NCBI GenBank assembly: GCA_037440825.1 | Contig: JBBITJ010000017.1 | Span: 1-18,141 of the forward strand | From: Candidatus Micrarchaeota archaeon | GTDB taxonomy: Archaea > Micrarchaeota > Micrarchaeia > Anstonellales > Bilamarchaeaceae | Reading direction: 5' to 3' | Length of the DNA stretch: 18,141 bases | Shown here: one piece after another, positions 1,110 to 18,141 of the stretch | Layout: each line of letters begins with the position of its first letter | Position numbering within the stretch: the first letter of the stretch is position 1 | Translations under genes and position numbers: made by a program | Notes under the pieces: generated by a model | What the model was told of the DNA's origin: nothing | The model's input: only the letters and a program-made list of their open reading frames with translations | The model's database searches: none

Positions 1110-1151
1110 CCCTGAACAGGGAACTGAAGGCTGGGAACCACAAACTAAGCT
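1110..1151 (+). repeat. Degenerate heptamer array
   Basis: CCCTGAA CAGGGAA CTGAAGG CTGGGAA CCACAAA CTAAGCT, between convergent genes. Confidence 0.7.
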
Positions 1152-1161
1152 ACTGGACTGC

Positions 1162-2115
1162 CTACTCCAGCTCTATGGTGGCCGGCGGCTTGTTGGTTAT
1201 GTCGTAGGCCACGCGCCCCACTTCCCGTATCTCGTTCGTGATCCTTGTTGAAATGGTCTGGAGCACTTCGGCAGGGATGTGCGAGAAGTTCGCGGTCATT
1301 CCGTCCAGGCTTTTCACTGCCCTTACAACTATTGTGTATTTGTATGAGCGCTCGTCGCCCTTCACGCCCACGGTTTTGGACGGGAGGAGGGCTGCGAAAT
1401 ACTGCCATGGCTTCTCCATCTTCCCTTCCGCGCTGGCATTGTCAATTTCCTGCTCCACTATCGCGCAGGCCTCGCGCACTATGTGCAGCTTGTCCTCAGA
1501 TACCTCTCCTACCACGCGCACCGCGAGCCCGGGGCCCGGGAACGGCTGCCTCTCGTAAACATAGCGCGGAAGCCCGAGCGACTTGCCGACCATGCGCACC
1601 TCGTGCTTGTAGAGCTCCCTGAGAGGTTCGCAGAGCTTGAGCCCCATGTCCTTGGGCAGCCCTGCGACGTTGTGGTGGCTCTTTATAGTGTCCCTTCCAT
1701 GACCTCCGCTCTCTATCCAGTCCGGGGCGATAGTGCCCTGCACCAGGAACGTGGCGCCGCTCGCCTTTGCCTCGTGCTCGAAAACGCGTATGAACATCTC
1801 GCCCATGATTTTCCTTTTCTTCTCCGGCTCGTCAGCGCCTTTCAAAGCGGAAAGGAACCGGTCCTTTGCATCCACCACTTTGAGGTGGATACCCACTTCG
1901 TCAGCAGCCGCCTTCACCTTCTTCGCCTCGTCCTTGCGCATGCAGCCCGTATCCACGAAAACTGCCTGCAGGTCTATCCCGGATTTGGCGCACAGTGCTG
2001 CAGCTACGAAGCTGTCCACCCCTCCGGAAAGCGCGATTACCGCCTTTTCCTTTCCCACCAGGGATTTGATGTTTTTTTCAGCTGAAAGGATAAATTTGTC
2101 TGGGCTGAAGGGCAT
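1162..2115 (-). CDS. guaAB: GMP synthase (glutamine-hydrolysing) subunit B, ATP pyrophosphatase
   Basis: SGGVDS PP-loop, KRKIMG, LVQGTIAPDWIES, IKSHHNV, RQPFPGPGLAVR, YDITNKPPATIE; no fused glutaminase domain (split archaeal type). Confidence 0.97.
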   Translation of the reverse strand: MPFSPDKFILSAEKNIKSLVGKEKAVIALSGGVDSFVAAALCAKSGIDLQAVFVDTGCMRKDEAKKVKAAADEVGIHLKVVDAKDRFLSALKGADEPEKKRKIMGEMFIRVFEHEAKASGATFLVQGTIAPDWIESGGHGRDTIKSHHNVAGLPKDMGLKLCEPLRELYKHEVRMVGKSLGLPRYVYERQPFPGPGLAVRVVGEVSEDKLHIVREACAIVEQEIDNASAEGKMEKPWQYFAALLPSKTVGVKGDERSYKYTIVVRAVKSLDGMTANFSHIPAEVLQTISTRITNEIREVGRVAYDITNKPPATIELE

Positions 2116-2124
2116 AAAACAACC

Positions 2125-3567
2125 TCATGCAAGAAGCTTTTTCGCGGCATATGCGCTGAGAAGCCCGCCGCATTCCTTCATTAGCTCCGCGCCTTTATAT
2201 AATTTTGCGTATCTCACGGAAGAGAGGTGCGACGGCGCTGGAAGGGCGCGGATTTTCCCGAGCATTTCAGGCACCGTGCGCTCAGCCCTGCTCACGGCTA
2301 CGGCGAGCCTGCCTGCGTGGATGAAAGCGCCCTTGTGCTGCGCGGAGAATTTTTCGCAGTCCTTCGCGAAGTGGAGGGGCGGACCGTAAATTATCCTCTT
2401 TGCTGGAAGCGGCTCGTCCAGCACCTCGAAAATGATGGATATTGCTTCTCCCTGCCTGTCCATCGCGTGGCCGATGGTTTCGAAGCCCTCCTTTTTCAGC
2501 GCGGCTTCGAGAGTGGAATAGAACCTGCGCACCTGCCCCCAGAGCACGTCGTCCACGAGGAAAGGGGCTGCGAAGGAGAGGCAATAGAGATGCCTCCCTT
2601 TCAGGAACGAGCGCAGTTGAGCGGAATCGAATGCCCTCTTCTCAAAGAACGCGGCCTTTTTCCTTGATTTGAGGAATATGCGGCTGAGCGCGATGAGCGA
2701 GAAGTAGTTTTCCCTGCTGACAACTGCTGAGACGTTCCTTTCTGGATCAACAGGGTCTATGAAAACGAGGGGCGAATCGAATTTCGCAAGCAGTTCTTGA
2801 CTGGAAACAGGGAACTGGGAACCGCCTGTTGATTTCCGGATTGGACCATCTGCGGATTCATTGATGCTGAGGGCCGTGCGCTCGCCCCATTGGGAAATGG
2901 ATTTCAGCGCACCATAGAAAGTGCCGTATTTGAGTATGAGGAGCTCGCACAAATAGCCGGAAAAGCCCTGCACCTTTATCTCCGCGCCGTAGAGGCCGTT
3001 GGCTTTCAGGAATTTCTTCAGGAGCCGCACCTCGTCCTTCTGCCTGGAAGACATGTTTGCGAGCACGTATTCCGTGTGGAGCTGGCTGCGGTCCACTGCG
3101 CTCCTTAATTCGAAATGCCTGCCTTCGCCTATTTCGTATGCAGGAACTACATCTATCTTCCTCCCTTCGAGGAAGAGGCGCACGTAGGGGTGCTGGGCGT
3201 AGGATATCTGATATAATGGAGTAGATGAAGCTGCAGGGGTTTTGGATTTCCTGTTTCCGGTTCCGGGTTTCGAAACGCGAAACTCTGAACTCGAGGCTTC
3301 TCTTGCGCCGAATGCATTCTCGACCGCGGCCCTGACTATTCCTTCCAGCGCCTCCTTTTCCACATTGTGCCTGAACAGCACGAAGATGTCTATGTCCCTG
3401 TCGCCTTCCAAATAGGTGCCTTTGGCGAAAGAGCCTGCGAGCACGACCTTCTCGCCCCTGAGCTGGGAGCGCAGCTTCGCGAGCACGGAATCTATGAACC
3501 TGCGCTCCGCCGCTTCGCTGCCTTTCGCGGGCCTTATGCGGCTGAGCACGGAACCGAAGGAATCCAT
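2125..3567 (-). CDS. cca: Archaeal class I CCA-adding enzyme (tRNA nucleotidyltransferase) with two loop insertions
   Basis: GSFAKGTYLEGDRDIDIF, YAQHPY, IDVVP, SAVDRS, EVRLLKKFLK, YGAEIKVQGFSGYLCELL, DPVDPERNVSA. Confidence 0.96.
   Translation of the reverse strand: MDSFGSVLSRIRPAKGSEAAERRFIDSVLAKLRSQLRGEKVVLAGSFAKGTYLEGDRDIDIFVLFRHNVEKEALEGIVRAAVENAFGAREASSSEFRVSKPGTGNRKSKTPAASSTPLYQISYAQHPYVRLFLEGRKIDVVPAYEIGEGRHFELRSAVDRSQLHTEYVLANMSSRQKDEVRLLKKFLKANGLYGAEIKVQGFSGYLCELLILKYGTFYGALKSISQWGERTALSINESADGPIRKSTGGSQFPVSSQELLAKFDSPLVFIDPVDPERNVSAVVSRENYFSLIALSRIFLKSRKKAAFFEKRAFDSAQLRSFLKGRHLYCLSFAAPFLVDDVLWGQVRRFYSTLEAALKKEGFETIGHAMDRQGEAISIIFEVLDEPLPAKRIIYGPPLHFAKDCEKFSAQHKGAFIHAGRLAVAVSRAERTVPEMLGKIRALPAPSHLSSVRYAKLYKGAELMKECGGLLSAYAAKKLLA
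2801..2821 (+). repeat. Heptamer array inside cca (in frame)
   Basis: CTGGAAA CAGGGAA CTGGGAA = 21 nt; encodes part of GSQFPVSS. Confidence 0.7.
3240..3296. repeat. Mirrored heptamer element inside cca (in frame)
   Basis: TTTTGGA TTTCCTG TTTCCGG TTCCGGG TTTCGAAA CGCGAAA CTCTGAA CTCGAGG; 3265-3284 is the exact reverse complement of intergenic 16682-16701. Confidence 0.85.
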
Positions 3568-3612
3568 GAATAGAAAAACTGGGGCAACCTTTTAAATGGT
3601 ATAATCCGAATT
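3568..3612. promoter_or_regulatory. Compact bidirectional promoter (probably leaderless transcripts)
   Basis: TTTTAAAT at 3590-3597 inside a 45-bp gap between divergent ATGs. Confidence 0.5.
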
Positions 3613-5892
3613 ATGGCCATGCGACGGTTCACATCAGTAGCGTTAGTCTTCCTGCTGCTGTTTTCCTTAGGCTGCGTCGCGGAAAAGGACGTGAGCGTTC
3701 CGGAGAACGAGAAGGTGCTTTCGGCTAGCGCCGGAGATCTGGACCTGGACACGGTTACCGACTCCAAGAAATACGTGTTCAGACCGCTCATAATAGACGC
3801 CGGCCAGAATATAATGATGCAGAAGTCCGTGAGCGCTGCGCAGATAGGCACCGAGCTGAACGTGAAGAGCACCAAGGCGCTCAGCCCCAACGACGTCTCG
3901 AGGCTGGAGACGCTCATACTCGAATTCGAGAACGGGAAGAAGGAGAAGGAGCGGCAGTGCAAAGATGAGCTGGGCATAAGCGGGGCCATGTGCGCCAGCC
4001 CTGCGGAATGCGCCGAAGGCTGCAAGAGCGCAGGCTGCCAGAAATACGGCTACGCGAGCGAGGCTCTGGGCTACTGGATATACAAGTTCGGGAAGGACCT
4101 GCAGGCGCTCTCGGACTACGTCAGCGACATGCGCAACCTCATGATCATCATAAAGGACGCCACTCCGCAGGAGAAGGAGGTGATAATGAAGAAGCTCAAC
4201 TCCATCCTGGACAAGACCATAGAGATAAACAACAATCCCCTCCTGAGCGAGAACATGTTCGCGGTGTGCGCGCCCATAGACTACAATAACAATAAGATAA
4301 AGGAAATGCTGACGATAATGGGGCAGTACGAACGCGTGCCTTCCGCGTACGAGTACGTAGTGAACGTGAAGTTCGTGGTGAGCGGCAAGGATTACACCGA
4401 GCTGCAGGTCACGGACAGCGTCCCGCAGGCGATGCTGCTCACGCTCCAGAACATATCGCTCGTGGACAAGGGAAGCGGCTACGACAGAGAGAAGAACGAG
4501 ATAAGCTGGGAGCCGCTCAAGCTCAACTTCTACCCGGAATACATAATCGGCTATTCGTTCGTGAGCAGCCAGAACATGCGCGAGGACATATTCGCGAACT
4601 GGCCCACCCCGAGGGTGAGCACCAGGGTGATTTCGCTTTCCAAGAGCCCCACGCTCTCCTACCTCTACGAAGCGAGCAAGAACATATATGGCATAACCAG
4701 GGTGCTCGGCTACTACCCTGCGCTCGCGATCGTGCTGGGGTTCTGGGACATACTGTTCTTTTCCGCGCTCTTCGTAGGGCGGATAGGGTACGCTTTCATA
4801 CAGGCGACGCAATCCAAGACGGGAGTGATGGACAACATAATGAAGGTGTTCGGGGGCGCGAACCCCCATTGGAGGGAATACGCGATAGCGTACGTAGTCT
4901 TCATAGTGCTCGGGTACGTGGCGATGTTCATCGGCGCCCCGGTTTCAGAGGACAGCCTGAACGTGGACAGCATAGGCAGGAACATACTCGAGAACCCATT
5001 CGGCGCGCTCTCGCTCCTGTTCTTCTTCCTCTCTTTCCACGCGGCATATTCCATCGCAGAGGACAGGGTGAAGGGTCTCATAGTCGGCAGGAAATATTAC
5101 GAGAACATCATAGACCTCAGCCCCAAGGCGAACAGGCTGAGGTACCAGAAGCTCCAGGAGAAGATGGCCGAACTCACTGCGGTGATAAGCGCCGCGAAGA
5201 ACCTCGACGTGAGTGAGGAGAGGAACGCGCTCATCACGGTTCCGGCGGAGCGCATAGAGGCGATATTGTCCAGGGAAGGCGGGGAGAAGGCGGTGAAGGA
5301 GCTCATAGAGGCGTACACCGCGAAGGTGGAGAACGCGATAGTCCGCGTACACGAGAAGATGAAGATAACCGAGCAGTACTGGCCCGAATGGAAGAAGGAG
5401 ATCGCGGACAAGGTGTCGCAGTGCAACCTCGTCTCGTTCACTTCGCTCACCAACATACCCCCGGAATGGAGGCTGTGGGCCGCGAGTAAGTACGTGGCCG
5501 AGAATCCGGGAGAGGATCTCGTCGTGGAGAACGAGACGATAAAGAGCATGGAGGTCACCCCCGAGGCAAAGGCGGACCACCTGCTGAAGAGGCTGGTGAC
5601 CAACGGTCTTGCAGTGGGAGGAGCGGTGCTGAAACCCGAGGGGATAATGGCCATGAGCTCCAGCGTGGGCAACAAGGCAGTGGAGAGCGTGCTCGCCTGG
5701 AAAGTGTCGAATTACGCCAAGACACTGGGGCAGCGGCTTTTCGGCTCACCGTACAGGGCGATACTCATAGTGGGCTCCAAGAACGCAGTGATATTCGTGA
5801 AGGGCGCGGAGAAGGAAGGGGCTGTGTTCGCCCCGATAGACAAGGTGAAGGACGCGTTCCTGGAATTCGAGGGCAGGCTCAGGAAGATTTGA
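3613..5892 (+). CDS. Large membrane protein: signal peptide, Cys-rich extracellular region, about 3 TM helices, coiled coil, C-terminal Roadblock/LC7-like domain
   Basis: N-terminal RR plus hydrophobic stretch ending LGC; CASPAECAEGCKSAGC; hydrophobic segments mid-protein; C-terminal alpha-beta-beta-alpha-beta-beta-beta-alpha pattern. Domain calls are by eye. Confidence 0.8.
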   Translation: MAMRRFTSVALVFLLLFSLGCVAEKDVSVPENEKVLSASAGDLDLDTVTDSKKYVFRPLIIDAGQNIMMQKSVSAAQIGTELNVKSTKALSPNDVSRLETLILEFENGKKEKERQCKDELGISGAMCASPAECAEGCKSAGCQKYGYASEALGYWIYKFGKDLQALSDYVSDMRNLMIIIKDATPQEKEVIMKKLNSILDKTIEINNNPLLSENMFAVCAPIDYNNNKIKEMLTIMGQYERVPSAYEYVVNVKFVVSGKDYTELQVTDSVPQAMLLTLQNISLVDKGSGYDREKNEISWEPLKLNFYPEYIIGYSFVSSQNMREDIFANWPTPRVSTRVISLSKSPTLSYLYEASKNIYGITRVLGYYPALAIVLGFWDILFFSALFVGRIGYAFIQATQSKTGVMDNIMKVFGGANPHWREYAIAYVVFIVLGYVAMFIGAPVSEDSLNVDSIGRNILENPFGALSLLFFFLSFHAAYSIAEDRVKGLIVGRKYYENIIDLSPKANRLRYQKLQEKMAELTAVISAAKNLDVSEERNALITVPAERIEAILSREGGEKAVKELIEAYTAKVENAIVRVHEKMKITEQYWPEWKKEIADKVSQCNLVSFTSLTNIPPEWRLWAASKYVAENPGEDLVVENETIKSMEVTPEAKADHLLKRLVTNGLAVGGAVLKPEGIMAMSSSVGNKAVESVLAWKVSNYAKTLGQRLFGSPYRAILIVGSKNAVIFVKGAEKEGAVFAPIDKVKDAFLEFEGRLRKI

Positions 5893-5997
5893 ACGCCTGG
5901 AAGAGGCGGAACTGCGGGCGCTGAGCGCACCTTTATTAACCCTCTTGCAGATATAATTTCGGTCAATTTTACGAGATAAAAAACCAACTTTACTAAA

Positions 5998-6017
5998 CCC
6001 GAACTCTGAACGCGAAA
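5998..6017 (+). repeat. Short heptamer array in the gyrB 5' leader
   Basis: CCCGAA CTCTGAA CGCGAAA; the last two units are identical to units in the cca insertion. Confidence 0.6.
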
Positions 6018-6028
6018 CAGTGGTATTG

Positions 6029-7918
6029 ATGGCTGGGGAAAACGATTATACGGCTGAAAGCATCCAGGTCCTGGAAGGGCTGGAAGCGGTGCGCAAAAGG
6101 CCCGCGATGTACATAGGGGACACTGACAAGAAAGGGCTCCACCACCTCGTTTACGAGATAGTGGACAACAGCATAGACGAGGCGCTCGCAGGGTTCGCGA
6201 AGAACGTGGAAGTGGTGCTGAAGCCTGACGGAAGCTGCACTGTGCGCGACGACGGAAGAGGGATTCCGACTGAAAAACACAGCATGGGCAAGAGCGCGCT
6301 GGAAGTGGTCACCACGGTTCTGCATGCAGGAGGGAAATTCGAGAAGAAGGCGTACAAGGTGTCCGGAGGGCTGCACGGCGTGGGGATTTCCGTAGTCAAC
6401 GCGCTCGCGGAGTGGATGGAAGCGGAAGTCCATCGCAACGGGAAGATTTACAGACAGAGGTACGCGAGGGGAATCCCTACAACCGCTGTGGAGGAAATAG
6501 GGGAAACCGGCTACCGCGGAACCATAGTCAGGTTCAAGCCGGACGCGCAGATATTCTCGAATACGGAATTCGACTACGAGACGATAAAAGAGCGGCTGAA
6601 GGAGCTCGCGTTCCTGAACAGGGGCGTGCGCATAGGGATAAAGGACGAGCGCGCTAACCTCGAGGAAATTTTCTTCTTCGAAGGTGGCATAATCCAGTTC
6701 GTGGAGCACCTGAACAAGGCGAGGAACAAGCTCCATCACCCCATCTATTTCCACAAGGAAGTGGGCAACATAGAGGCAGAGGTGGCATTCCAGTACACGG
6801 ACGCGTACAGCGAGATGATATACTCGTTCGTGAACGACATCAAGACAATTGACGGTGGGACGCACGTGAGCGGGTTCAGGACCGGGCTCACGAGGGTGCT
6901 CAACGACTATGGGGAGGAGAACAAGATCATAAAAGACGGAAAGAAGATCAGCGGCGAGGACGCAGTGGAAGGCATCACTGCGGTCGTGAGCGTCAAGGTC
7001 CCCGAGCCGCAGTTCGAAGGCCAGACTAAGGGCAAGCTGGGCAACAGCGAAGTCAAGGGATATATGGACAGCTTCTTCTCCGCTGCATTCAAGCAGTACC
7101 TTGAGGAGAACCCGCAGATTGCGAAGACGATACTTGCGAAGTGCATGAGCGCGATGGAAGCGCGCGAAGCTGCGCAGAAGGCGAAAGACCTCATAAGGAG
7201 GAAGAGCATATTCGAATCCAGCGTGCTTCCTGGAAAACTGGCGGACTGCATCGAGGAGGATCCGGCCAAGAGCGAGCTGTTCATAGTGGAGGGCGATTCG
7301 GCAGGCGGCTCTTCGAAGCAGGGCAGGAACAGGCAGACACAGGCGGTGTTGCCCCTTAAGGGAAAAATTTTGAATGTTGAGAAGGCGCCGCTCAACAAAA
7401 TTTTGATGAGCAAAGAGATACGCAATGTGGTGCTCGCGCTCGGCACGGGGTTCGGGAACGAGTTCGACCCCAAGAAACTGAGATACCACAAGATAGTGAT
7501 AATGACTGATGCGGACGTGGACGGTTCGCACATACGCACGCTGCTGCTCACGCTTTTCTACAGGCATTTCAAGCCGCTCATAGAGAACGGCCACATATAC
7601 GCGGCCATGCCGCCCCTTTACAGGATAAAGAAGGGGAAGAACGAGAAATACGTGTACAACGAGGAGCAGCTCGCGAAGGAGGTGGCTGCATTAGGGGGGG
7701 ATGTGGAAATACAGCGCTACAAGGGTCTCGGAGAGATGAACGCCCAGCAGCTGTGGGAGACCACGATGAATCCCGAGACGAGGACGCTCAAGAAAATAAC
7801 CGTGGATGACGCGATGAAGGCTGACGAGATGTTCGCCCTCCTGATGGGAGATGCCGTTGAGCCCCGCCGCGCGTTCATAGAGCAGTACGCGAGGGAAGTG
7901 AAGAACCTCGACATCTAG
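6029..7918 (+). CDS. gyrB: DNA gyrase subunit B
   Basis: YTAESIQVLEGLEAVRKRPAMYIG, EIVDNSIDE, DDGRGIP, GGLHGVG, PGKLADC, VEGDSAGG, PLKGKILNV, MTDADVDG, QRYKGLGEMN, C-terminal NLDI. ATG 6029 follows a GTGGT RBS-like motif. Confidence 0.96.
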   Translation: MAGENDYTAESIQVLEGLEAVRKRPAMYIGDTDKKGLHHLVYEIVDNSIDEALAGFAKNVEVVLKPDGSCTVRDDGRGIPTEKHSMGKSALEVVTTVLHAGGKFEKKAYKVSGGLHGVGISVVNALAEWMEAEVHRNGKIYRQRYARGIPTTAVEEIGETGYRGTIVRFKPDAQIFSNTEFDYETIKERLKELAFLNRGVRIGIKDERANLEEIFFFEGGIIQFVEHLNKARNKLHHPIYFHKEVGNIEAEVAFQYTDAYSEMIYSFVNDIKTIDGGTHVSGFRTGLTRVLNDYGEENKIIKDGKKISGEDAVEGITAVVSVKVPEPQFEGQTKGKLGNSEVKGYMDSFFSAAFKQYLEENPQIAKTILAKCMSAMEAREAAQKAKDLIRRKSIFESSVLPGKLADCIEEDPAKSELFIVEGDSAGGSSKQGRNRQTQAVLPLKGKILNVEKAPLNKILMSKEIRNVVLALGTGFGNEFDPKKLRYHKIVIMTDADVDGSHIRTLLLTLFYRHFKPLIENGHIYAAMPPLYRIKKGKNEKYVYNEEQLAKEVAALGGDVEIQRYKGLGEMNAQQLWETTMNPETRTLKKITVDDAMKADEMFALLMGDAVEPRRAFIEQYAREVKNLDI

Positions 7919-7939
7919 CAAATAGCTGGACGCAAACCG

Positions 7940-9841
7940 CTAGCGCTGGTGCCTGGCGGCGAGCGCGTCCTTTTTCCTGTATTCCTGGTTCCCTTCCTTG
8001 TCTATCCTGAAGAACATCTCCCTATCCATGACTTCGGCGTTTATCCTGTCCAGGCTCTCCGGAATCCGGTAGACGCCGGAATTCTTCAGGCTCTCTATGA
8101 CAACCTCCACGCTCTTGCCGTTCCTCAAGGTTTTCTTGAGCTTATCCACTGTCGCCTTTATCTCCCTTCCCATCTGCTCCAGCACAAGGTACTCGAACCG
8201 CTCGTTCGAGGTATCGTAGTCCAGGCCGTTGGACTTGAGGAAGCTCTTGACTGAGCGCACCGGGCTCATGTAGAATCCGTTCGTGATATCGCCGACCATG
8301 AGCTTCCTGTCCCACATGTGCTTCACCGCGCGCTGGAAATCTGAGTGGGTTTCGCCGTCATTGAATTCTATGCCCTCGAAAAGCTTGAGGAATATGCCTT
8401 TGCTCTTAGCGAGCCCCAGCCAGTCCGCGATCTTCGCCATCTCGCTCTGCACCTTGCCCTTTTTCTCCGCCTCTTCCGCTTCCGCGAAAAGGTGGAGCTG
8501 CCCCTCGACCGGCTTGGGGGCAGGCGGGGCGATTATGCTCCATCCCTTCGCGATCTTCACGAGCGCGTCGTCTTCCGCGAACTCCCCTTTCACCATCGCG
8601 CCCAGGCTCTGCCAGACCTTCATGACGAAATCCCTCTTGTAGGGGTCTTTGTGCGCCTTGTTCAGCTCCTCGAGCATGTCGTCGAACGCAATTGCGGTCT
8701 TGGCGTAGCCGCAGCCTGTGTGCAGGCTCACCTTAAGGCTCTTGCTGAACTGGTTCTTTAGCGTGCGCTCGAGCTCTTTTTCTGAAGGGTATGCGCCTAT
8801 GACTTTTATCACTCCTGAAGCCGTCTTGTTCCCGCATCTCGCATCCACGCAGAATATGGATTTGCAGCACCGCCTTCTCCTTATGAGCTCTGTCGCCGCT
8901 GTGTTTTCAGGGGATTCGTGCTCCATTATGTTCTCCAAGTATTTCCTCGAAATCTCGTTGGAAGCGAGGCCGTTCTTCTCCGCGAATTCCACGAACGGCT
9001 CCTTCACTATTTTTCCCCCTTTCTTTGCGACGAAGTAGAGCTTCCTTGTCTGGATGTCGTGGACTATGGGCACGAGCCTGAACTGGTTGCCCTGGAAGTT
9101 CCAGGACTGCAGCCCTGTGGCCTTGTCCTTGGTTATGACGTGGCCGTGGTCTCTGGCTTTCTGCGCGAGCTTTTCCAGCCTTAGTATCGCCAGCCGCGCT
9201 ACTGCGTCGAAATCCAGCCCTTTCTTCTCCTCGGAATCGTAATCCCCTATGCACGGGATGTAGGGGGCGACATCAGAAGATATGGAGAACCGTTCCGCCC
9301 CTTCCGCGCGCTTCCTCTCGTGCTCGGCATGGGCGAGGTGGTTGAGCATGTACATTATGACCGTGAAATCCGAAGCCTCCTCCAATATGTGCTTCTCCTT
9401 CCTCATGCCGCTCGCGGTGCCGAACGCACCTCCCCTCGCAACGCCGTGCTCCACGGAATAGTCGTTCTTGCACCATATTCCGGCCACGTTGGTTTCTGAA
9501 GTATTTGATATGTAGATGATGCCCGGAAGCTGGTCCTTGCTCATGTCGGACCTGTTGGCCAGCGTGAATTCGCTCCTCTTGCGGTCGAAGAATTCGAATG
9601 CCTGGTTGTCCGCGACGCCTTCCGCGTTCGCGGCGTCCAAAAACGATAATATGAGCTTGTTCCTTTTTGCGATGTCTTTCATGGAGAAGATGTCCTTGGG
9701 CATTGTCTTTTCCCACACGTCCATGAGCGCCTTTGATCCTACCATCGTGCGCCCGAGCAAAGAGGTGCCCCTCATGGTGCGTCCGGACTGTATTACGCCT
9801 AGAATCTTCAACTTTTGCTCTTCTGGCGGCTTTCCTGTCAT
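7940..9841 (-). CDS. Hypothetical 633-aa protein with a beta-carbonic-anhydrase-like Zn motif
   Basis: Long ORF with a GGTGG RBS; C331-x-D-x-R and H374-x-x-C377-G motifs. The CDS is secure; the function is inferred. Confidence 0.7.
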   Translation of the reverse strand: MTGKPPEEQKLKILGVIQSGRTMRGTSLLGRTMVGSKALMDVWEKTMPKDIFSMKDIAKRNKLILSFLDAANAEGVADNQAFEFFDRKRSEFTLANRSDMSKDQLPGIIYISNTSETNVAGIWCKNDYSVEHGVARGGAFGTASGMRKEKHILEEASDFTVIMYMLNHLAHAEHERKRAEGAERFSISSDVAPYIPCIGDYDSEEKKGLDFDAVARLAILRLEKLAQKARDHGHVITKDKATGLQSWNFQGNQFRLVPIVHDIQTRKLYFVAKKGGKIVKEPFVEFAEKNGLASNEISRKYLENIMEHESPENTAATELIRRRRCCKSIFCVDARCGNKTASGVIKVIGAYPSEKELERTLKNQFSKSLKVSLHTGCGYAKTAIAFDDMLEELNKAHKDPYKRDFVMKVWQSLGAMVKGEFAEDDALVKIAKGWSIIAPPAPKPVEGQLHLFAEAEEAEKKGKVQSEMAKIADWLGLAKSKGIFLKLFEGIEFNDGETHSDFQRAVKHMWDRKLMVGDITNGFYMSPVRSVKSFLKSNGLDYDTSNERFEYLVLEQMGREIKATVDKLKKTLRNGKSVEVVIESLKNSGVYRIPESLDRINAEVMDREMFFRIDKEGNQEYRKKDALAARHQR

Positions 9842-9946
9842 GTTCCCACCTAGATAGGGCTGAGCGGTTTTTTTCGTATGTTTTAATTTATGGTATAAAG
9901 GTTTTTTAAACCCTTATTCATGCACGCCGCATGCGTTTCCACTATG

Positions 9947-9954
9947 TTTAAATA
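9947..9954 (+). promoter_or_regulatory. TATA box for the C/D sRNA
   Basis: TTTAAATA beginning about 23-30 nt before the sRNA 5' stem and C box. Confidence 0.6.
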
Positions 9955-9969
9955 CCGCCAAAGCGTAAT

Positions 9970-10055
9970 GGATGTATTGATGACATCGCTCCAGACTGAT
10001 TCCCGGAACTTGTTTCCTGGAACTTGATGATCGGAGTAGCTACTGACACATATCC
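9970..10055 (+). ncRNA. Archaeal box C/D 2'-O-methylation guide sRNA
   Basis: C box TTGATGA 9977-9983, 12-nt guide, D' CTGA 9996-9999, C' TTGATGA 10024-10030, 12-nt guide, D CTGA 10043-10046, terminal stem GGATGT/ATATCC. Confidence 0.88.
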
Positions 10056-10063
10056 TTTTTTTT
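10056..10063 (+). terminator. Oligo-T terminator of the sRNA
   Basis: T8 run immediately after the terminal stem. Confidence 0.6.
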
Positions 10064-10281
10064 AGAAAAAGAAAATATGTCGTCTAATTGACGACAATTC
10101 TTCGCGATACGCGAAGAAGGTCTAAGTGGTTCACCCCAAAAGAAAAACGTTGGGACTAAGGAGCAGCCGCAGGAAACAGTTCGAATGTACATGGAGACAG
10201 GCAACCTCGGATAGAGGGCATTTAAAAACGTTTACGTTCTATATTCAGCATTACCCCAGAAGCTTCTTTTAGGTGATACTC

Positions 10282-10911: not shown

Positions 10912-11011
10912 TCAAGTTAATTTTTCTCCCATCGCCTTTCCGGCGCGTGCGCAAGCATTTCCGAGGAAGGCGAAGCCATACAAGGCGCAATCAGGCAGAA
11001 AATCACAGGTG

Positions 11012-12916: not shown

Positions 12917-12932
12917 CTTTTCTTTTCCCTTT

Positions 12933-13490
12933 TCATCCCTTCTTTTTCGGCAATTCCCTTCCAAGGATGAATCCGTTCAGCATCGGAATCACGTAGAATG
13001 GAATCACTATTCCCGCGATGAATCCGGTGATGATGCGGAGCTCGTTCGTGCTCTGCCTCAATCCTATGAGCTGGGTTCCGCCGTCCAACCCTATCGGGAC
13101 GAGGGCCAGCAGAAAGTAGATAAGGGGAGGGACGCTTTTTTCGCCCATCTTCCTCACTAACGGGAACACCAAGCCGCCCAGGATCATAGCCCCGTAAATG
13201 GCGAGGTCGCGGGTGCACACTGGGAATTTGTATCCCAGGACGCCGTGGTCGTCCACTACCTGCTGCCGCGCAACAACGCTAACGTTGTCCCTGTCGCAAT
13301 CGCCTATCGTCCCATCCTGGAAATAACATAGTGAACGATTAGCGAGCTGGTGGCAGACAGGGGCATAGATTGCATGGATTGTTTCGAACAGCGCAGGAAA
13401 GCCTTCTGCCATGAGCGGGGTTATGAATATCGGACCCAGGAAAAACAGTGTTAATGCCATGTAAAGTGCGAATCCCAGGAATTTGCGCAT
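12933..13490 (-). CDS. DUF2085-family membrane protein
   Basis: CHQLANRS, FPVCTRDLAIY, LDGGTQLIGLRQSTNELRIITG with several TM segments. Confidence 0.85.
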   Translation of the reverse strand: MRKFLGFALYMALTLFFLGPIFITPLMAEGFPALFETIHAIYAPVCHQLANRSLCYFQDGTIGDCDRDNVSVVARQQVVDDHGVLGYKFPVCTRDLAIYGAMILGGLVFPLVRKMGEKSVPPLIYFLLALVPIGLDGGTQLIGLRQSTNELRIITGFIAGIVIPFYVIPMLNGFILGRELPKKKG

Positions 13491-13638
13491 AAGCGCATTT
13501 CAATTAGAAAAGATTTATTTGTTTGGATTCCTGTTCGCGAAGCGGCTTTCCGCGTGCAGGACGCGCGAAGCGGCTATTTTCTCAGGGCCTGTGAGCGGCT
13601 CCATAAGTGGATTTGAGTGTTAAAAAATAAGTATTTGG

Positions 13639-14121
13639 TTATGCCTTTTTCTTTGCCTTCTTGAGCTCGCGCCTAGTCTCCTCCACCTCCCAAGGGTAGA
13701 CTATCCACGCATCCGTGCTTTCCATGTAGAAATCCGGCTTCACCGCGCTCTTCGGCTTGTTGTGGAGGGTTGCAATTTTCACTTGCGAAGCTCCTGCCCG
13801 TTTTACGTGCTCCTTCGCCACCGCAAGGCTCCTTCCGGTGTCGGCAACGTCGTCCACTATGAGCACCTTCTTCCCTTTGACGTCCACCTGTATGGGCTGG
13901 CTTACAGTAGGGAAATCCTTGGTCTGCCCTATCGTCTTGTAGAATTCTATGCGCACAATCGCGACATTCGGGTTGTCAAGATAGTCAGAAAGCAGGCGCA
14001 CTGGAACCAGCCCCCCTCTGGATATGCCGACGAGCCAATCCGGCCTGAACTCCGAGACTTTCGCGGCCAGTTGCCTGCACATCTCTTCAACCTTCTTCCA
14101 GCTTGGCTTCACGAATTTCAT
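13639..14121 (-). CDS. Type I phosphoribosyltransferase, hypoxanthine/xanthine/guanine PRT-like
   Basis: GISRGGLVP, LIVDDVADTGRSL PRPP-binding loop, WIVYPWE; start reassigned to MKFVKPSW. Confidence 0.9.
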   Translation of the reverse strand: MKFVKPSWKKVEEMCRQLAAKVSEFRPDWLVGISRGGLVPVRLLSDYLDNPNVAIVRIEFYKTIGQTKDFPTVSQPIQVDVKGKKVLIVDDVADTGRSLAVAKEHVKRAGASQVKIATLHNKPKSAVKPDFYMESTDAWIVYPWEVEETRRELKKAKKKA

Positions 14122-14317
14122 GGCATCATCAGTTTTTCTCTGCGCTCGAGGCCGCCTTTGCGCCTTTCCGCTTATCGAAGAACTCCATCGCCTGGGCAAG
14201 CCCCTTGCGCTTTCCTGCCTTTCGATTCCCCTTCCTTCGCTGCCCTGCGTTTCGCCATGCGTTCACCTAGGAAGGTTTTTCATTAACGATTATATTCTTT
14301 TCTCCGGATAGAGGGCC

Positions 14318-14686
14318 ATGCTCAGGGCGAACGCGAAGACGCATCCGGAAACGCTCTACGCGAGGATGCACAACAGCGTGAGCCTCATCGCGAGGATAGA
14401 GAACGGCGGCGAAACCAGGTGGGTGGAGGCCGAGGTCCAGCTGCCTGAAAAGCTCTCGCTTGCAGCCGATACGCAGCTGCGCAAGGGGCGCATGCGGCTC
14501 GGGATAGTTGAAAAAGGCGAAACGCTGGAGAAGTCGGTGCGCATATACGGGAACCAGTACACTGATGCCCAGCTTTACAACTGCAAGCTCATTGTTTTCA
14601 CGTACGACAAGGACGGCACGATAGACAAAAGAATAGACGTGTCGTTCACCGTGAAATGCGAGGAGCAGAAGCCTCCGGTCATATAG
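14318..14686 (+). CDS. Hypothetical beta-rich (Ig-like?) protein
   Basis: 122-aa ORF with alternating hydrophobic beta-strand pattern; TATA-like TTATAT about 25 nt upstream. Confidence 0.7.
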   Translation: MLRANAKTHPETLYARMHNSVSLIARIENGGETRWVEAEVQLPEKLSLAADTQLRKGRMRLGIVEKGETLEKSVRIYGNQYTDAQLYNCKLIVFTYDKDGTIDKRIDVSFTVKCEEQKPPVI

Positions 14687-14692
14687 GCGCAG

Positions 14693-14720
14693 GACGAAAC
14701 CGGGGACTGGGAACAGGAGA
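14693..14720 (+). repeat. Heptamer array between convergent genes
   Basis: GACGAAA CCGGGGA CTGGGAA CAGGAGA; shares AACCGGGGACTGG with 16711-16723. Confidence 0.75.
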
Positions 14721-14743
14721 CCACTTATGCGTGCATGCCGGGA

Positions 14744-16165
14744 TTATTCGCTCCCGAGCAGCATACCGCGCCTTCCTTTTCTCAGCGCAGCGTGCGCCAG
14801 CTCTATCCCGTATTTGTGCTCGTATTCCAGCTTCGCGGCGACTTGCTTGGGATCGGCGTAGCCCCATTTCTTCAGCGCCTGCGCGAGCTCCTTGTGCTTT
14901 TTCGCGTACTGGGGTGCAGGGATGCACTTCATCGCCGCTTCCACCGCCTGCACCATGGATATTGCGCCCTTGCGCGTCCCTCCTGGGTGGCCGTGCACGC
15001 CTGCGCCTGCCTGTATGTTGATGTCCCTGCCGTGGAGGGCGAGAAGCGCGTCCACTTTCCCCGCGTCCAACCCTCCTGAGGCGATGGACAGCATGGGCTT
15101 TATGTGCGCCGCGAACTCCATGCTGAGCGAGCCGAAATAGAATTTCTCGTGTATCTTGTGCTGGTCCGCGATCTCGTGCAGCCGCGCGATTATCGCAGGC
15201 GCCCCTTCCATCTTCCCCACCCCTGTGCCTATGTGGAGCTGGTCGATCCCCAGCATGCGGTAGAATTTCTCGTACACCTGGAAATTGACGCCGAAGTTGG
15301 CGCGGTTGGGGGCTGCGAAGCCGGCGCGGTGGCCGTGCGTAGCGAACCCGTATTTCTTCGTCACGTCCAGGATGTCCTGGAGCGCGCTCATGCCCATCAC
15401 GTACGCGTCCAGCATCACCAACACGTGGTTCTGGAGCCCCATCTCGTTGAGGTAATCCACGCGCTCGACCATCCTTGAATAGCGGTCAGTTATGTTGCTG
15501 GAATAAAGGTGGTTCTGCCCCGTCTCCTTTCCTGCCTTCTCTATGGATTTCACCACTTCGTGCAGCCTGTCCTTCCACTTGCAGAATTCCTGGTCCACCA
15601 GGTTCTCGTCGTCTTTCACCAAGTCGAGGCCGCCGGCGTAAGCTTCGTAGGCGACGTGCGCCCATTCCTTCGCCGTGAGCCCGACCTTGGGCTTAACTAT
15701 CGTGCCTACATGAGGGCGCCTGCTCTTCAGCGTGCCTGCCATCTTCCTTATGCCTTCGAGCCCGCGGAGCGGGCCGGTGAACTGCTTCTGGTATTTCAGC
15801 GGGAAGGATATGTCGAATATGTACAGCTCCTCGAGTTCCTTGAGCCCGAATATGTTGCCGAGCACCGAGGCCTGGAACTGGCTTATGTTCTTGTAGTCGA
15901 AATGCTCCAGCGGGTACGCGATCTTTATGAAGCCCGCGTCCTTTCCCACCTTGTTTACCTGGAACACGCGCGCCCTGTAATGAGTCCAGACGAAATCGTT
16001 CATCGTCGTGAGCTTGGTCCAGGAGCCCACGCTGCTCTCCGCGGCTATCGCTTCGGCGATTTTTTCTATCGGCGCTTTTCCCTTCGCCCAAATGAAAACT
16101 ATGAAATCGCTCTCCTTGTCCGGCTTGTAATCGAAATCGAGATATCCGTAGCCTCCGTAAGCCAT
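14744..16165 (-). CDS. rbcL: RuBisCO large subunit, form III / III-like
   Basis: AAESSVGSWT, GNIFG, GTIVKPKVG, GGLDLVKDDENL, HGHRAG, LHIGT, GKMEG, ASGGL, GHPGG; ATG 16165 after a GGGTGG RBS. Confidence 0.93.
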   Translation of the reverse strand: MAYGGYGYLDFDYKPDKESDFIVFIWAKGKAPIEKIAEAIAAESSVGSWTKLTTMNDFVWTHYRARVFQVNKVGKDAGFIKIAYPLEHFDYKNISQFQASVLGNIFGLKELEELYIFDISFPLKYQKQFTGPLRGLEGIRKMAGTLKSRRPHVGTIVKPKVGLTAKEWAHVAYEAYAGGLDLVKDDENLVDQEFCKWKDRLHEVVKSIEKAGKETGQNHLYSSNITDRYSRMVERVDYLNEMGLQNHVLVMLDAYVMGMSALQDILDVTKKYGFATHGHRAGFAAPNRANFGVNFQVYEKFYRMLGIDQLHIGTGVGKMEGAPAIIARLHEIADQHKIHEKFYFGSLSMEFAAHIKPMLSIASGGLDAGKVDALLALHGRDINIQAGAGVHGHPGGTRKGAISMVQAVEAAMKCIPAPQYAKKHKELAQALKKWGYADPKQVAAKLEYEHKYGIELAHAALRKGRRGMLLGSE

Positions 16166-16181
16166 GCGCCCACCCAAACAG

Positions 16182-16210
16182 TTTCCGGTTCTGCGTTCCG
16201 GGCTTTCGCG
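16182..16210 (-). repeat. Heptamer array in the rbcL 5' leader
   Basis: Plus strand TTTCCGG TTCTGCG TTCCGGG c TTTCGCG, between the TATA box and the RBS. Confidence 0.75.
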
Positions 16211-16225
16211 TTCTGTTCCGTCTTA

Positions 16226-16237
16226 CATATTATAAAG
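16226..16237. promoter_or_regulatory. Bidirectional TATA element (rbcL / arrestin-like gene)
   Basis: CATATTATAAAG between divergent genes. Confidence 0.5.
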
Positions 16238-16266
16238 TTTTCCTTCGTTCAGTGTGCGGGATTCCC

Positions 16267-16671
16267 ATGGTGCTAGGAATAGGCGAAGGCAGGATAGACA
16301 TAACCACTGAACGGTTCTCTTACGGCCCTGGCGAGGAGGTGCGGGGCAGGGTAATACTCCAGCTCAACAAGCCGAAAAGTGCACGGGCGCTCAGGATCCG
16401 GTTCTACGGCGAAAAGAGGACGTTTAGCTATTCCTCTTCTGGAAAGAAAAGCGTCAAGACCGAGCAGATATTCTCGCAGGAGAGAATCCTTGGAGGGCAC
16501 AAGGAATACCCGGAGGGGATAAGCGAGTACCAATTCCAGTTCCGCATTCCCATAGTCGCGGAGCTGCGGGACACAGGCAGCATATTCAAATGGTACTTGG
16601 ACGCGTCGCTGGACCTGCCGCTGAGCTTTGACATAAGCAAGAGGCAGGTGCTGAACTTCACACTCAGATAG
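16267..16671 (+). CDS. Arrestin-N / SpoOM-like beta-sandwich protein
   Basis: YGPGEEVRGRVILQL, ALRIRFYGE, YQFQFRIP, KWYLDASLDLP pattern typical of arrestin-fold N domains. Confidence 0.75.
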   Translation: MVLGIGEGRIDITTERFSYGPGEEVRGRVILQLNKPKSARALRIRFYGEKRTFSYSSSGKKSVKTEQIFSQERILGGHKEYPEGISEYQFQFRIPIVAELRDTGSIFKWYLDASLDLPLSFDISKRQVLNFTLR

Positions 16672-16676
16672 CACGG

Positions 16677-16726
16677 TTTTCAGTTTCGCGTTTCGAAACC
16701 CAGAACACGGAACCGGGGACTGGAAA
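16677..16726. repeat. Mirrored heptamer element
   Basis: TTTTCAG TTTCGCG TTTCGAAA CCCAGAA CACGGAA CCGGGGA CTGGAAA. Confidence 0.85.
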
Positions 16727-16735
16727 CCATCTATC

Positions 16736-16743
16736 TTTAATAA
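16736..16743 (+). promoter_or_regulatory. TATA box for SRP RNA
   Basis: TTTAATAA about 25 nt upstream of the predicted 5' end. Confidence 0.55.
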
Positions 16744-16760
16744 GAGCAGATGAGTACTTA

Positions 16761-17033
16761 GTGCGGGCTAGGGCGGGGCTAGGGGCCCCGGAAGCGCAAG
16801 CTTCACTACCGCAATTCCCCTTCAGGCGGCCCGAATACCCGCAGCGTCCAGCTTTTTCGGAATGAACTTGGGCTTAAGCGCTGACGCCTTGCTCTGCATT
16901 GTGTTGCACTGTGCGAACCTGGCCAGGCCGGAAGGAGCAACCATAAGCATAATGCAGCGCGTCTGCAGAATTCAAGGCCGAGCAGATGCCGAAGGCCACA
17001 TTCCGGGGGAGCCCGGCAAAGCGGGGAGCCCAC
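16761..17033 (+). ncRNA. ffs: Signal recognition particle (7S) RNA
   Basis: Helix 8 motif TGG-CCAGG-CC-GGAA-GG-AGCAA-CCA (16920-16943); CTGCATTGTGT/GCATAATGCAG helix; 5' GGGCT pairs with 3' AGCCC; about 270 nt. Ends are approximate. Confidence 0.88.
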
Positions 17034-17041
17034 TCTTACTG

Positions 17042-17097
17042 TTTCCTGTCTTCGGTTCCGGGGCTTATGTTTTCGGTTTCGGGTTTGCAGTTCCGAA
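17042..17097 (-). repeat. Eight-unit heptamer array directly after SRP RNA
   Basis: Plus strand TTTCCTG TCTTCGG TTCCGGG GCTTATG TTTTCGG TTTCGGG TTTGCAG TTCCGAA. Confidence 0.85.
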
Positions 17098-17138
17098 TCC
17101 GAAGGCGGCTCAATACGCATCGTCGTGGTGCGCAAACC

Positions 17139-17246
17139 TCAGCAGCCGCACGGCGTTTCCTTCGATTTCGTAAATAGGACAAAGCACGAATCCACGTGCA
17201 CCCGCCTCGTCCCCTTAAGCACTTTGCGCAGCGGCTTGAAACCCAT
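17139..17246 (-). CDS. Putative 35-aa basic peptide ending in Cys-Gly-Cys
   Basis: MGFKPLRKVLKGTRRVHVDSCFVLFTKSKETPCGC; GGTTGG upstream and a TTTTATAA box shared with folD. Confidence 0.35.
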   Translation of the reverse strand: MGFKPLRKVLKGTRRVHVDSCFVLFTKSKETPCGC

Positions 17247-17307
17247 AAAACCAACCGATTCCGCATTCGCAGAAAATCCTTATAAAATATCCATTGGAAA
17301 TTGGAGC

Positions 17308-18141
17308 ATGCTTCTTTACGGGAAGGAGATTGCGGAAAGCATCATTTCGCGCATAAAGGCGGAAATCGATTCAGAAGGGCTGAAGCCGCGGCTAGGGATA
17401 GTTGTTGTAGGGGATTATCAACCCTCGCAGGTGTACGTGAAGAAGAAGATGGAGACTGCGAAACGCGCGGGGATAGAGGCGGAATTGTTCCACCTTCCAC
17501 ACAATTCCGAGGAGAAGGAGGTGCTCGCGCTTGTGGGGAAGCTGAACAAGGACAAGAGTATAGACGGGTACATAGTCCAGCTCCCCCTTCCGCCGCACAT
17601 AAACCTGGACAAGGTGCTGGAAGCGATAGACCCTTCCAAGGATGTTGACGGATTCCATCCTTCGAACATGGGCAAGATGCTCCTCAACCTTCGTGATGAC
17701 GTTTTCGAATCAGCGACCCCTGCAGGGATAATGGAGATGATAAGGCATTACAAAATCCCCATGGCAGGCGCAAATGCGGTAGTGGTGGGAAGGAGCAACA
17801 TAGTCGGAAAGCCCATAGCAATGATGCTGCTCCAAGAGGATGCCACTGTCACGATATGCCATTCCAAAACCCGGAACCTCGCTGAACATACGAAATTGGC
17901 AGATGTGCTCGTTGTTGCTGCTGGGAAGCCCGGGTTCATCAAGCCTGACATGGTGAAGGAGGGGGCCTACGTCATAGATGTAGGCACCACCCACGTCGAA
18001 ACCAGCGGCGGGAAACCGGGGACAGGAAAGGTCGTCGGGGATGTGGACCCTGAAGTGCAGAAGAAGGCGCACGTTTCCCCTGTTCCAGGCGGCGTGGGGC
18101 CCCTGACTGTGGCTATGCTGCTTCAAAATACGTTAAAAGCG
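17308..18141 (+). CDS. folD: Bifunctional methylenetetrahydrofolate dehydrogenase/cyclohydrolase (3' end outside window)
   Basis: Manual translation: SQVYVKKK, IVQLPLP, IDPSKDVDGFHP, TPAGI, VGRSNIVGKP, TVTICHS, IDVG, GDVD, PVPGGVGPLTVAML. Missing from the ORF track because there is no stop in the window. Confidence 0.96.
   Translation, partial: MLLYGKEIAESIISRIKAEIDSEGLKPRLGIVVVGDYQPSQVYVKKKMETAKRAGIEAELFHLPHNSEEKEVLALVGKLNKDKSIDGYIVQLPLPPHINLDKVLEAIDPSKDVDGFHPSNMGKMLLNLRDDVFESATPAGIMEMIRHYKIPMAGANAVVVGRSNIVGKPIAMMLLQEDATVTICHSKTRNLAEHTKLADVLVVAAGKPGFIKPDMVKEGAYVIDVGTTHVETSGGKPGTGKVVGDVDPEVQKKAHVSPVPGGVGPLTVAMLLQNTLKA
18009..18029 (+). repeat. Heptamer array inside folD (in frame)
   Basis: CGGGAAA CCGGGGA CAGGAAA = 21 nt; shares GAAACCGGGGAC with 14696-14707. 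Confidence 0.65.

Follow-up and report, generated by a model that had tools for sequence, protein, structure and literature searches.

Short heptameric repeats that are dispersed over a genome have been described in several groups of bacteria. In Xanthomonas (units GGGAATC or GGGANTN) and Nostoc there are about 185 arrays per genome, mostly of four units and heterogeneous, and Xanthomonas has 70-75 inverted array pairs (PMC4692102). The TAACTGA repeats of Beggiatoaceae, cyanobacteria and Bacteroidetes comprise 169 sets of two to six heptamers, some of them in open reading frames (ORFs) (PMC4679880). In the parts of these accounts covered here, neither an origin nor a protein that binds them is given for such arrays (PMC4692102, PMC4679880). 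We found similar arrays in an archaeon. They occur in an 18,141-nucleotide contig from a Candidatus Micrarchaeota archaeon (JBBITJ010000017.1; hereafter the window, meaning this whole stretch of DNA) and throughout the genome to which it belongs, and the same polar four-unit motif is fixed at both attachment (att) arms of islands that are integrated in tRNA genes. The window makes up contig C17 entirely; the assembly to which it belongs (G000) totals 875 kb in 45 contigs and is 96% complete.

The Micrarchaeota arrays resemble those of Xanthomonas and Nostoc in being mostly intergenic, on both strands, found in close inverted pairs, and gained and lost between species (PMC4692102). The Xanthomonas and Nostoc repeats differ in that they are bacterial and G-rich, have been interpreted as quadruplex formers, and are in many cases perfect (PMC4692102), whereas the arrays described here are archaeal, A-rich, almost never perfect, and tied to att arms. 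A quadruplex-capable unit with a G-tract was not found in them; the unit profile is C-N-S-R-R-A-A, and GGGG units are rare. The covered passages on Xanthomonas and Nostoc link the repeats to no mobile element or protein (PMC4692102). With the TAACTGA repeats the arrays share a patchy spread with "no mechanism evident" and the proposal of protein-binding sites; the TAACTGA repeats differ in having one exact unit, in direct orientation before start codons (PMC4679880). The terms four-helix, S23, IVP and archae- are absent from the searched text of that paper (PMC4679880).

Other systems share features with the islands. The intervening sequence of Coxiella 23S rRNA holds an S23p ORF with three to four heptamer repeats upstream (PMC4990558). 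Its protein belongs to the same family as the one found here (TIGR02436, PF05635), and again heptamers lie beside the gene; structures of PF05635 proteins have been solved, with a function lacking in the passages covered, 2GSC is a pentamer, and Xanthomonas has a four-helix pentamer (PMC4990558). The Coxiella element differs in being an RNA hairpin in rRNA, with a complementary 28-bp stem and a cut by RNase III (PMC4990558). In contrast, the Micrarchaeota elements are DNA islands at tRNA genes, with non-complementary arms and with hundreds of gene-free arms; the four-helix gene sits in a tRNA-linked island and not inside a complementary stem of an rRNA gene. Elements with suicidal integrases (SSV1, pTN3, pT26-2) likewise target tRNA genes and have att within the integrase gene, and together with SNJ2 they provide a precedent for small accessory proteins and for archaeal recombination of relaxed specificity (PMC8371274, PMC5861418). 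The passages covered describe neither heptamer arm arrays nor a four-helix partner for these systems (PMC8371274, PMC5861418). Suicidal integrases carry PF16795; the integrase of the Micrarchaeota islands matches PF00589 only, and PF16795 was not matched. Contiguous non-palindromic 7-bp repeats, at least four of which are needed for function, also make up parS of pSM19035, which differs in that its six plasmid sites are read by the omega ribbon-helix-helix dimer for partition (PMC9499535). A protein of that kind was not identified here, where no search aimed at it was made.

The original prediction for this DNA had named cyanobacterial heptamer repeats and Rickettsia palindromic elements (RPEs) as the closest analogues and had called the archaeal system uncharacterised. 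Cyanobacterial short tandemly repeated repetitive (STRR) elements consist of near-exact tandem copies of a heptamer, and RPEs form families of 100-150-nt copies; the Micrarchaeota arrays are neither. Between them, STRR, the small dispersed repeats (SDR) of Nostoc and the Rickettsia elements have a heptamer period, a presence in stable-RNA genes, as in RNase P RNA for STRR, and a presence in-frame in protein loops. The proposed kinship is close for the bacterial heptamer repeats, but for RPEs it is limited to in-frame insertion. Our literature search covered the main texts of open-access papers, and the top-ranked ones where there were many, and found no paper that describes such arrays from archaea or att arms made of heptamers. 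As far as that search reaches, the archaeal occurrence and the link to att arms are new and "uncharacterised" was apt for archaea, but the repeat type itself is already in print for Xanthomonas, Nostoc and Beggiatoaceae.

Arrays at the arms of tRNA-integrated islands

Period-7 arrays are present genome-wide, on both strands, far more often than expected by chance. Runs of at least three consecutive C-N4-AA units, the form originally proposed, occurred four times in the window compared to a mean of 0.05 in 100 order-2 Markov controls, and 137 times in the genome compared to 0, 6 and 4 in three order-5 controls. With a unit profile we found 209 arrays in the genome at a score of at least 20 (1, 9 and 2 in order-6 controls), including 10 in the window, and 133 at a score of at least 25 (0, 0 and 0 in the controls). 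The predicted dispersal was therefore upheld, since shuffled-type controls do not match these numbers. At weak scores (~14.7), controls gave 42-51 matches compared to 326 real ones. Tandem Repeats Finder misses nearly all arrays. Since the motif of the original prediction served as the seed of the profile, the C and AA of host arrays are conserved partly by construction; tests anchored on att are free of this bias. For the statistics below we used 204 arrays, that is, the 209 minus 5 assembly duplicates. The modal array is polar, with a cap NNCGAAA, three units of CNSRRAA and a closing C; four units were present in 119 of the 204 arrays, the mode.

The genome contains one PF05635/TIGR02436 four-helix-bundle gene (contig C9, 375-734), homologues of which carry the label Micrarchaeota. 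The gene lies in a decayed island of 2.8 kb that consists of a tRNA, an array, an integrase remnant, cargo, the four-helix gene, further arrays and a duplicate of the tRNA 3' end. The integrase remnant is broken by an internal deletion, and relatives carry intact versions of the island. The order in these islands is att, arm or arms, the catalytic part of the integrase, cargo, the four-helix-bundle gene, arm and att, and both arms point outward at a GGGCCC core with fixed spacing. Gene families that co-occur with the arrays or are flanked by them, which the original prediction had suggested looking for, are thus a tyrosine integrase and a PF05635 protein at the island arms. As it had also stated, no mobilising gene is visible in the window.

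The position of the arms is regular. We compared 102 distinct four-helix loci of the island clade (117 were fetched and near-duplicates dropped). An array pointing away from the four-helix gene was present within 1 kb downstream at 48 of 72 loci and within 1 kb upstream at 4 of 67. Between -2250 and -250, at most one locus per 250-nt bin had an array; that is, the cargo is nearly array-free. Control loci had 0.08 arrays per kb. An inverted array was found upstream of the catalytic part of the integrase at 20 of 23 loci, and none in the control window. When ends were anchored on the GGGCC core alone, an array was present at all 12 of 12, with 10 sharing the same phase and the other 2 off by a single base. 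Among 24 tRNA-anchored arms, identity was 0.85 at positions 1, 6 and 7 compared to 0.42 at position 2, the pairs in this test not being independent. Four-fold sites of the linked gene gave 0.42 and spacer 0.47 for the same arms; position 2 varies as freely as silent sites do. The polar four-unit motif is fixed at both att arms. Two-arm repeats, orientation to the core, fixed spacing and a conserved consensus are features of arm-type or accessory-factor sites of a tyrosine recombinase, and all of them are found here.

The integrase gene is split by its own att, with the arms within its reading frame. In 24 loci the frame was open for 79-182 codons upstream of the catalytic part, and it crossed the core where one was found. 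At the other end of the island, a short ORF reads through the arm into the core. The arms are conserved at period 7 whatever the frame, and therefore the conservation acts at the DNA level.

The exact three-unit pattern was present in 9 of 9 integrase carriers (among 61 genomes) and in 14 of 15 carriers of the island four-helix clade (among 221 genomes). Outside the family of this archaeon, the sole array-rich genome was also the sole carrier of the four-helix clade among 182. G046, from another family, was a second array-rich carrier and has some homogeneous runs of units. Islands keep their arms in hosts with just 3-9 pattern matches. One mini-island of 1.3 kb (G035, L302 1075-2413) consists of att, arm, two genes, arm and att, with neither integrase nor four-helix gene. 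Its two small genes resemble a nucleotidyltransferase-HEPN pair. Twenty stretches from array-poorer genomes included several island ends, and the rest were tRNA flanks, gene gaps and protein loops.

The islands vary in other ways. At L152 5020-5700 (G011) there is a minimal unit that has a direct repeat of ~29 bases at its bounds and the four-helix gene alone between its arms. At L149 9225-10344 (G023) a reverse-transcriptase gene in the cargo, beside the four-helix gene, consists of two parts that are separated by a face-to-face pair of arrays. An island subgroup (L307, L313, L281) apparently has a non-tRNA core, GACGTGCGGTCTGATAC, and the same arms. Inward of the arm, island ends have conserved motifs (CTAATT-like at ~-64 to -57 and GACGT-like at ~-53 from the core) that are possible further binding sites.

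Arrays in the host genome match the island arms in unit, in size and in their outward polarity; they are gained as short insertions, lost, and kept longer than neutral DNA (see below). Our explanation is that the arrays are protein-binding att arms of Micrarchaeota tRNA-integrating islands and that these arms have spread into the host genome. Taken as a whole, we hold this model with about even confidence. An array of about four polar 7-bp units would be the cis-acting, protein-binding arm of islands that integrate at tRNA 3' ends. The reader may be a four-helix-bundle oligomer, acting alone or with the integrase as an architectural or directionality factor, perhaps with about one unit for each subunit of the oligomer, homologues of which are pentamers. 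Off-target or aborted recombination, along with internal deletion of islands, could leave arm pairs and single arms in the host; this is the weakest step. The arms would settle in tolerant places, namely intergenic gaps, tRNA flanks and tRNA introns, and protein loops, and binding, or exchange of units between arrays, might hold them near the consensus. The route of spread and the force that would keep host copies near the consensus are the weak steps of the model. The island setting makes the role of the arrays guessable and testable, in that it points to a reaction, to the substrate of that reaction and to a candidate for the reader.

Several points weigh against this model. Binding of the arrays by any protein is conjectural. 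Neither integrase nor four-helix gene was found in four array-rich genomes, G004 (77% complete), G005 (93%), G020 (86%) and G192 (90%), and G150 has a four-helix gene and no integrase match. Within the family, the link between gene and arrays is not significant (13/14 compared to 18/25, p 0.22), and related genomes do not count as independent cases. At the 172 host arrays that are not near tRNAs there is neither an att-core remnant (GGGCC at 6 compared to 7.6 ± 2.2) nor a flanking duplication. Host tRNAs that bear arms include ends other than GGGCCCA, the G000 integrase is broken, and only in mid-size gaps do arrays clearly follow the outward rule. In the 24-arm test, the identity of 0.85 is inflated somewhat by a register fitted within ± 2 nt. 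An excess of GGGC-type words after arrays (34 compared to 9) was rejected as a core remnant, as it was gone once tRNA-adjacent arrays were removed and a dinucleotide control was used.

Further clades of PF05635, obtained in the same search, have different heptamers on their flanks (L002, L003, L014; judged by eye). A bolder version of the model, which we put forward tentatively and would sooner expect to fail than to hold, is that PF05635 rings are sequence-specific readers, and possibly co-writers, of four-to-five-unit heptamer arrays, with one unit per subunit and clade-specific unit dialects. They would serve a self-splitting integrase in Micrarchaeota, their sites would escape to whole genomes, tRNA introns and protein loops, and the repeats of Xanthomonas, cyanobacteria and Beggiatoaceae would belong to the same system. 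The island link suggests an origin for these long-unexplained heptamer repeats. If true, a new class of recombination accessory factor would explain a decades-old repeat puzzle across two domains.

Unit composition of the arrays

Units next to each other, the two arms of a pair and arrays far apart resemble one another no more than would be expected of units taken from the pool at random. Adjacent units (445 pairs) had a mean distance of 2.49 compared to 2.54 ± 0.05 for random pairs, and identical neighbours were rarer than chance (5 compared to 11.8 ± 3.3 expected), in agreement with the original statement that neighbours differ. They agreed slightly at position 3 only (z 3.7). Distant arrays do share exact units, as had been noticed, but this reflects just a small unit vocabulary: two-unit strings common to different arrays numbered 68, compared to 64 ± 9 after shuffling. 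For paired arms compared to swapped partners, there was no excess of complementarity (2.56 compared to 2.46 ± 0.11) or of folding energy (-16.7 compared to -17.8 ± 0.7). Units, arms and arrays are alike only as random draws are, and therefore the arrays are the product of neither slippage nor a copied master element, and the pairs are not selected as perfect hairpins. Copies with a common consensus and without common ancestry strings are not produced by slippage or transposon models.

The notion that the arrays are ordinary simple repeats, born by slippage and later decayed, deserves almost no credence. Period 7, the slight agreement at position 3 and the homogeneous runs in G046 are in its favor, but identical neighbours are below chance; the original prediction had likewise argued against simple slippage from the differences between neighbours. 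Decay would not randomise position 2 while sparing positions 1 and 7, and slippage leaves the polarity, the modal length and the fixed place at att unexplained. In a contig-level comparison, whose reach excludes rare variants, the only listed indel at an array was an insertion of 3 nt after position 16725, and changes of 7 nt were absent from the list.

A miniature copy-and-paste element moved by a transposase, of the type of a miniature inverted-repeat transposable element (MITE), repetitive extragenic palindromes (REP/REPIN) or a Rickettsia-type palindrome, is very improbable. Such an element would account for short inserts that have empty counterparts in relatives, for in-frame insertions and for hairpin-like pairs, but subfamilies and shared strings do not go beyond chance, which largely refutes it, and the arms are not true inverted repeats. 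Flanking or target-site duplications and closing stems were not above shuffles in the G000 arrays, and among 13 candidates in G000 there was no convincing case of gene cargo tightly bracketed by arms. A dispersing selfish element with one master sequence, one of the three origins first offered, was thus unsupported, there being no shared strings and no copy families. Among those three, binding sites are favored, in a form tied to a mobile element, based on the fixed place at both att arms and the decayed island in G000.

The third origin, templated addition, we kept as a rival, although no enzyme for it is in view. Enzymes might write the arrays, or rewrite them, one unit at a time at the ends of DNA or at junctions formed by recombination (by a telomerase-like activity, by a reverse transcriptase that the four-helix protein would partner as Avd does, or by gene conversion among arrays), so that island arms would be products and not only binding sites. 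Each array resembles an independent draw from the unit pool, and some whole units exceed the expectation from independent positions (CCCTGAA 13 compared to 2.1, CGCTGAA 9 compared to 1.1, CTGGAGA 17 compared to 5.1). The sharp modal length, the keeping of the consensus in genomes without island genes, and the back-to-back pairs, which look like two extended ends joined at a palindrome, also fit. The four-helix protein fold resembles 2RLD and 2GSC and has a weaker likeness to Avd (TM 0.77, E 0.19), which is a further point for writing; NCBIfam assigns the gene to TIGR02436 and not to the Avd model. Against writing, there was no match to the reverse transcriptase family PF00078 in the 96%-complete G000, and a reverse-transcriptase-like ORF, broken by arrays, was noticed at 1 of 18 listed four-helix loci, the other loci not having been scanned for one. 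Orthologous arrays share descent, with a unit distance of 2.0 compared to 2.40 ± 0.11 for shuffled arrays, and the rate of change at the variable positions of the arms does not exceed that of silent sites. We consider enzymatic writing unlikely. With no PF00078 match in G000 and no Avd model match, the arrays do not resemble a diversity-generating retroelement.

Host arrays near genes and in relatives

Most arrays (155/204) lie outside coding sequence and 49/204 lie within called genes, for a density of 156 per 100 kb in non-coding DNA compared to 6.4 in coding DNA. Some of the coding matches are due to chance (one had a same-length, array-free orthologue); the controls allow up to ~9 of 209. 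Of the tight pairs of arrays, 28 are back-to-back, 7 of these with an 8-nt centre, and only 2 are face-to-face. Arrays tend to aim at the nearer gene edge. This was so for 42 of 51 arrays in mid-size gaps, and for 20 of 35 in short and 28 of 48 in long gaps, the last two not being significant. A rule based on transcription orientation, with the purine strand before starts and the pyrimidine strand after stops, was rejected (56 compared to 44 in tandem gaps).

The preference for tRNA genes is strong. An array lies within 50 nt of 23 of 40 called tRNAs; among protein genes the same holds for 143 of 930. Of the 24 tRNA-flank arrays in G000, 23 are aimed at the tRNA. In relatives the figure is 20 of 21, from loci chosen for having arrays, so that orientation alone is informative. 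Elsewhere in the genome arrays are inside tRNA introns (four anticodon-arm introns and one T-loop insertion), where they are a source of intron sequence in a reduced genome. Pairs in tRNA introns fold into intron stems, and in the T-loop insertion one array unit completes the helix and a bulge of a bulge-helix-bulge motif. The two tRNA-Ile-like genes at C5:24779-24893 in G000 and at L314 1290-1490 have both an anticodon intron and an array-holding T-loop (59/60) insertion; the bulge-helix-bulge of the C5 gene is canonical and lies roughly where islands recombine. A pair in a tRNA-Ile of G103 was rejected as an island remnant. It and the C5 pair are better read as T-loop introns because the C5 counterpart has the bulge-helix-bulge motif.

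These intron stems and the bulge-helix-bulge, together with the arms around the signal recognition particle (SRP) RNA gene, which pair with each other in the predicted fold, and the pyrimidine-rich array strand that follows 12 tRNA 3' ends, are what would be expected if the arrays acted as RNA, as excised intervening-sequence stems, processing stems or U-rich terminators. We think this improbable. Most arrays are single, the arms of a pair show no greater complementarity than swapped partners do, no orientation rule holds at protein genes, and the 5' arm of the SRP gene lies upstream of a TATA-like box. Prompted by the SRP fold, we compared arms that enclose a gene, and complementarity was not raised in any of seven pair classes.

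Arrays come and go among relatives. The three-unit pattern was found in 37 of 221 genomes of the phylum, with up to 163 matches; it was present in 27 of 36 family members and in 2 of 24 other genomes of the order, and matches per genome ranged from 0 to 163 within one family and from 1 to 79 within the genus. Empty sites and in-frame insertions in relatives bore out the gain and loss at orthologous sites for which the original prediction had called. Array-bearing inserts include some 20 non-array bases besides the array. From the G004, G005 and G001 loci we took 98 arrays (from window orthologues, together with the 30 matches listed first out of 79 and out of 48). Of these, 52 could be mapped to G000, and 19 have a same-strand array there. 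Four-fold sites are near saturation in the same comparison (0.46 and 0.42 compared to 0.33 and 0.29). At non-coding sites, 15 of 36 kept an array compared to 2-3% under simulated neutral decay (22% at half rate), a retention figure that is somewhat overstated in that mapping favors conserved neighbourhoods. Array retention looks non-neutral.

Retention above neutral and the excess of arrays in non-coding DNA could also mean that the arrays are sites of a host chromatin or RNA-binding protein that islands have borrowed at their att arms. Phage lambda borrows sites for integration host factor (IHF) at its att arms in this way. The array-rich genomes that lacked island genes in our searches fit such a protein, and contiguous 7-bp repeats that bind one dimer each have a precedent in pSM19035 parS (PMC9499535). 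However, the range of matches within one family and one genus, the islands that retain arms in hosts with few matches, and the array-rich genomes outside the family that carry the island's own four-helix clade all argue against a host protein, and insertions in enzyme loops are hard to explain as regulation. A host reader seems quite unlikely to us.

Array sites and genes of the window

The window encodes a tetratricopeptide repeat (TPR) protein, GMP synthase (1162-2115, minus strand), CCA-adding enzyme (2125-3567, minus strand), gyrB (6029-7918), a proteasome subunit, FttA/aCPSF1, a phosphoribosyltransferase, RuBisCO large chain (14744-16165, minus strand) and FolD (17308 to the window end). 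Genes were called with a simple caller and starts are approximate. Nine clear array sites had been described. Eight hold, two of them as back-to-back pairs, and the ninth, upstream of gyrB (5997-6017, plus strand), scores 14.7, which is background level; G005 has an array at the equivalent place and G004 has none. A probable array near 10002 was rejected: 10000-10026 has no in-register array, and consists of isolated unit-like words in a 14-bp tandem duplication that adjoins a different, hairpin-cluster repeat.

Arrays in protein loops, as predicted, were found in the CCA-adding enzyme and FolD, and they are a source of new loop sequence in these core enzymes. Loop 1 of the CCA-adding enzyme has a 28-codon in-frame insertion (3226-3309) that holds back-to-back arrays at 3240-3274 (minus strand) and 3269-3296 (plus strand) with the centre TTTCGAAA. 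It is absent in 27 of 29 other orthologues; G005 has 20 additional codons with one arm, and G004 has 15 with no recognisable array. The loop 2 array (2801-2821, plus strand, score 23.4) is part of a 15-codon in-frame insertion, at ~2806-2850 by alignment, that is absent in 29 of 29 other aligned orthologues. The FolD array (18009-18029, plus strand) is an 8-codon in-frame insertion; G004 has 10 additional codons there with related units, and G005 and other orthologues of the same genus have none.

Other arrays lie between genes. The array at 1110-1144 (plus strand, score 21.4), in the gap 3' of GMP synthase, is aimed at the gene end; G004 has an array with other units and a partner arm, and G005 has none. 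An array at 14693-14720 is held in a 57-nt insertion (14687-14743, plus strand) between two convergent stop codons, which is absent in G004 and G001. Upstream of the RuBisCO gene there is an array at 16182-16202 (minus strand, score 24.3); at this site G005 has an array with other units, G004 has a decayed one (score 15), and none was found in G001 and G002.

The SRP RNA gene (16763-17033, plus strand; Rfam RF01854, 62 bits) has arrays that aim inward at it from both sides and none inside. On its 5' side, a back-to-back pair at 16677-16697 (minus strand) and 16692-16726 (plus strand), with scores of 24.0 and 34.5 and again the centre TTTCGAAA, ends 10 nt short of the TATA-like box at 16736. 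On its 3' side, in the trailer, is an eight-unit array at 17042-17097 (minus strand, score 43.3), which begins 9 nt past the Rfam match and is outside the RNA. The proposal that arrays colonise non-coding RNA was therefore not borne out in the window, but it does hold for tRNA introns elsewhere. G004 and G005 keep the layout of the 5' pair with different units, and have shorter 3' arrays with other units at the equivalent place. The SRP gene and its flanking arrays are inverted relative to RuBisCO in G004, G001 and G002 (loci L079, L085, L088), and the left breakpoint in G000 adjoins an array.

Among the other genes of the window, 16267-16671 encodes a small arrestin-N-like protein, a 759-aa membrane-type protein (3613-5892) and a 633-aa protein (7940-9841) had no Pfam match, and gyrB is without an accompanying gyrA. 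In the assembly, contigs C42-C44 have GC contents of 0.59, 0.35 and 0.67, are array-free, and are possible binning contamination. There is also a second dispersed family, of short GC-rich hairpin clusters (TCTTCG..CGAAGA type), at 10080-10150 in the window, at ~110-160 on C9 and in tRNA flanks on C12 and C15, with several look-alikes in G001-G003.

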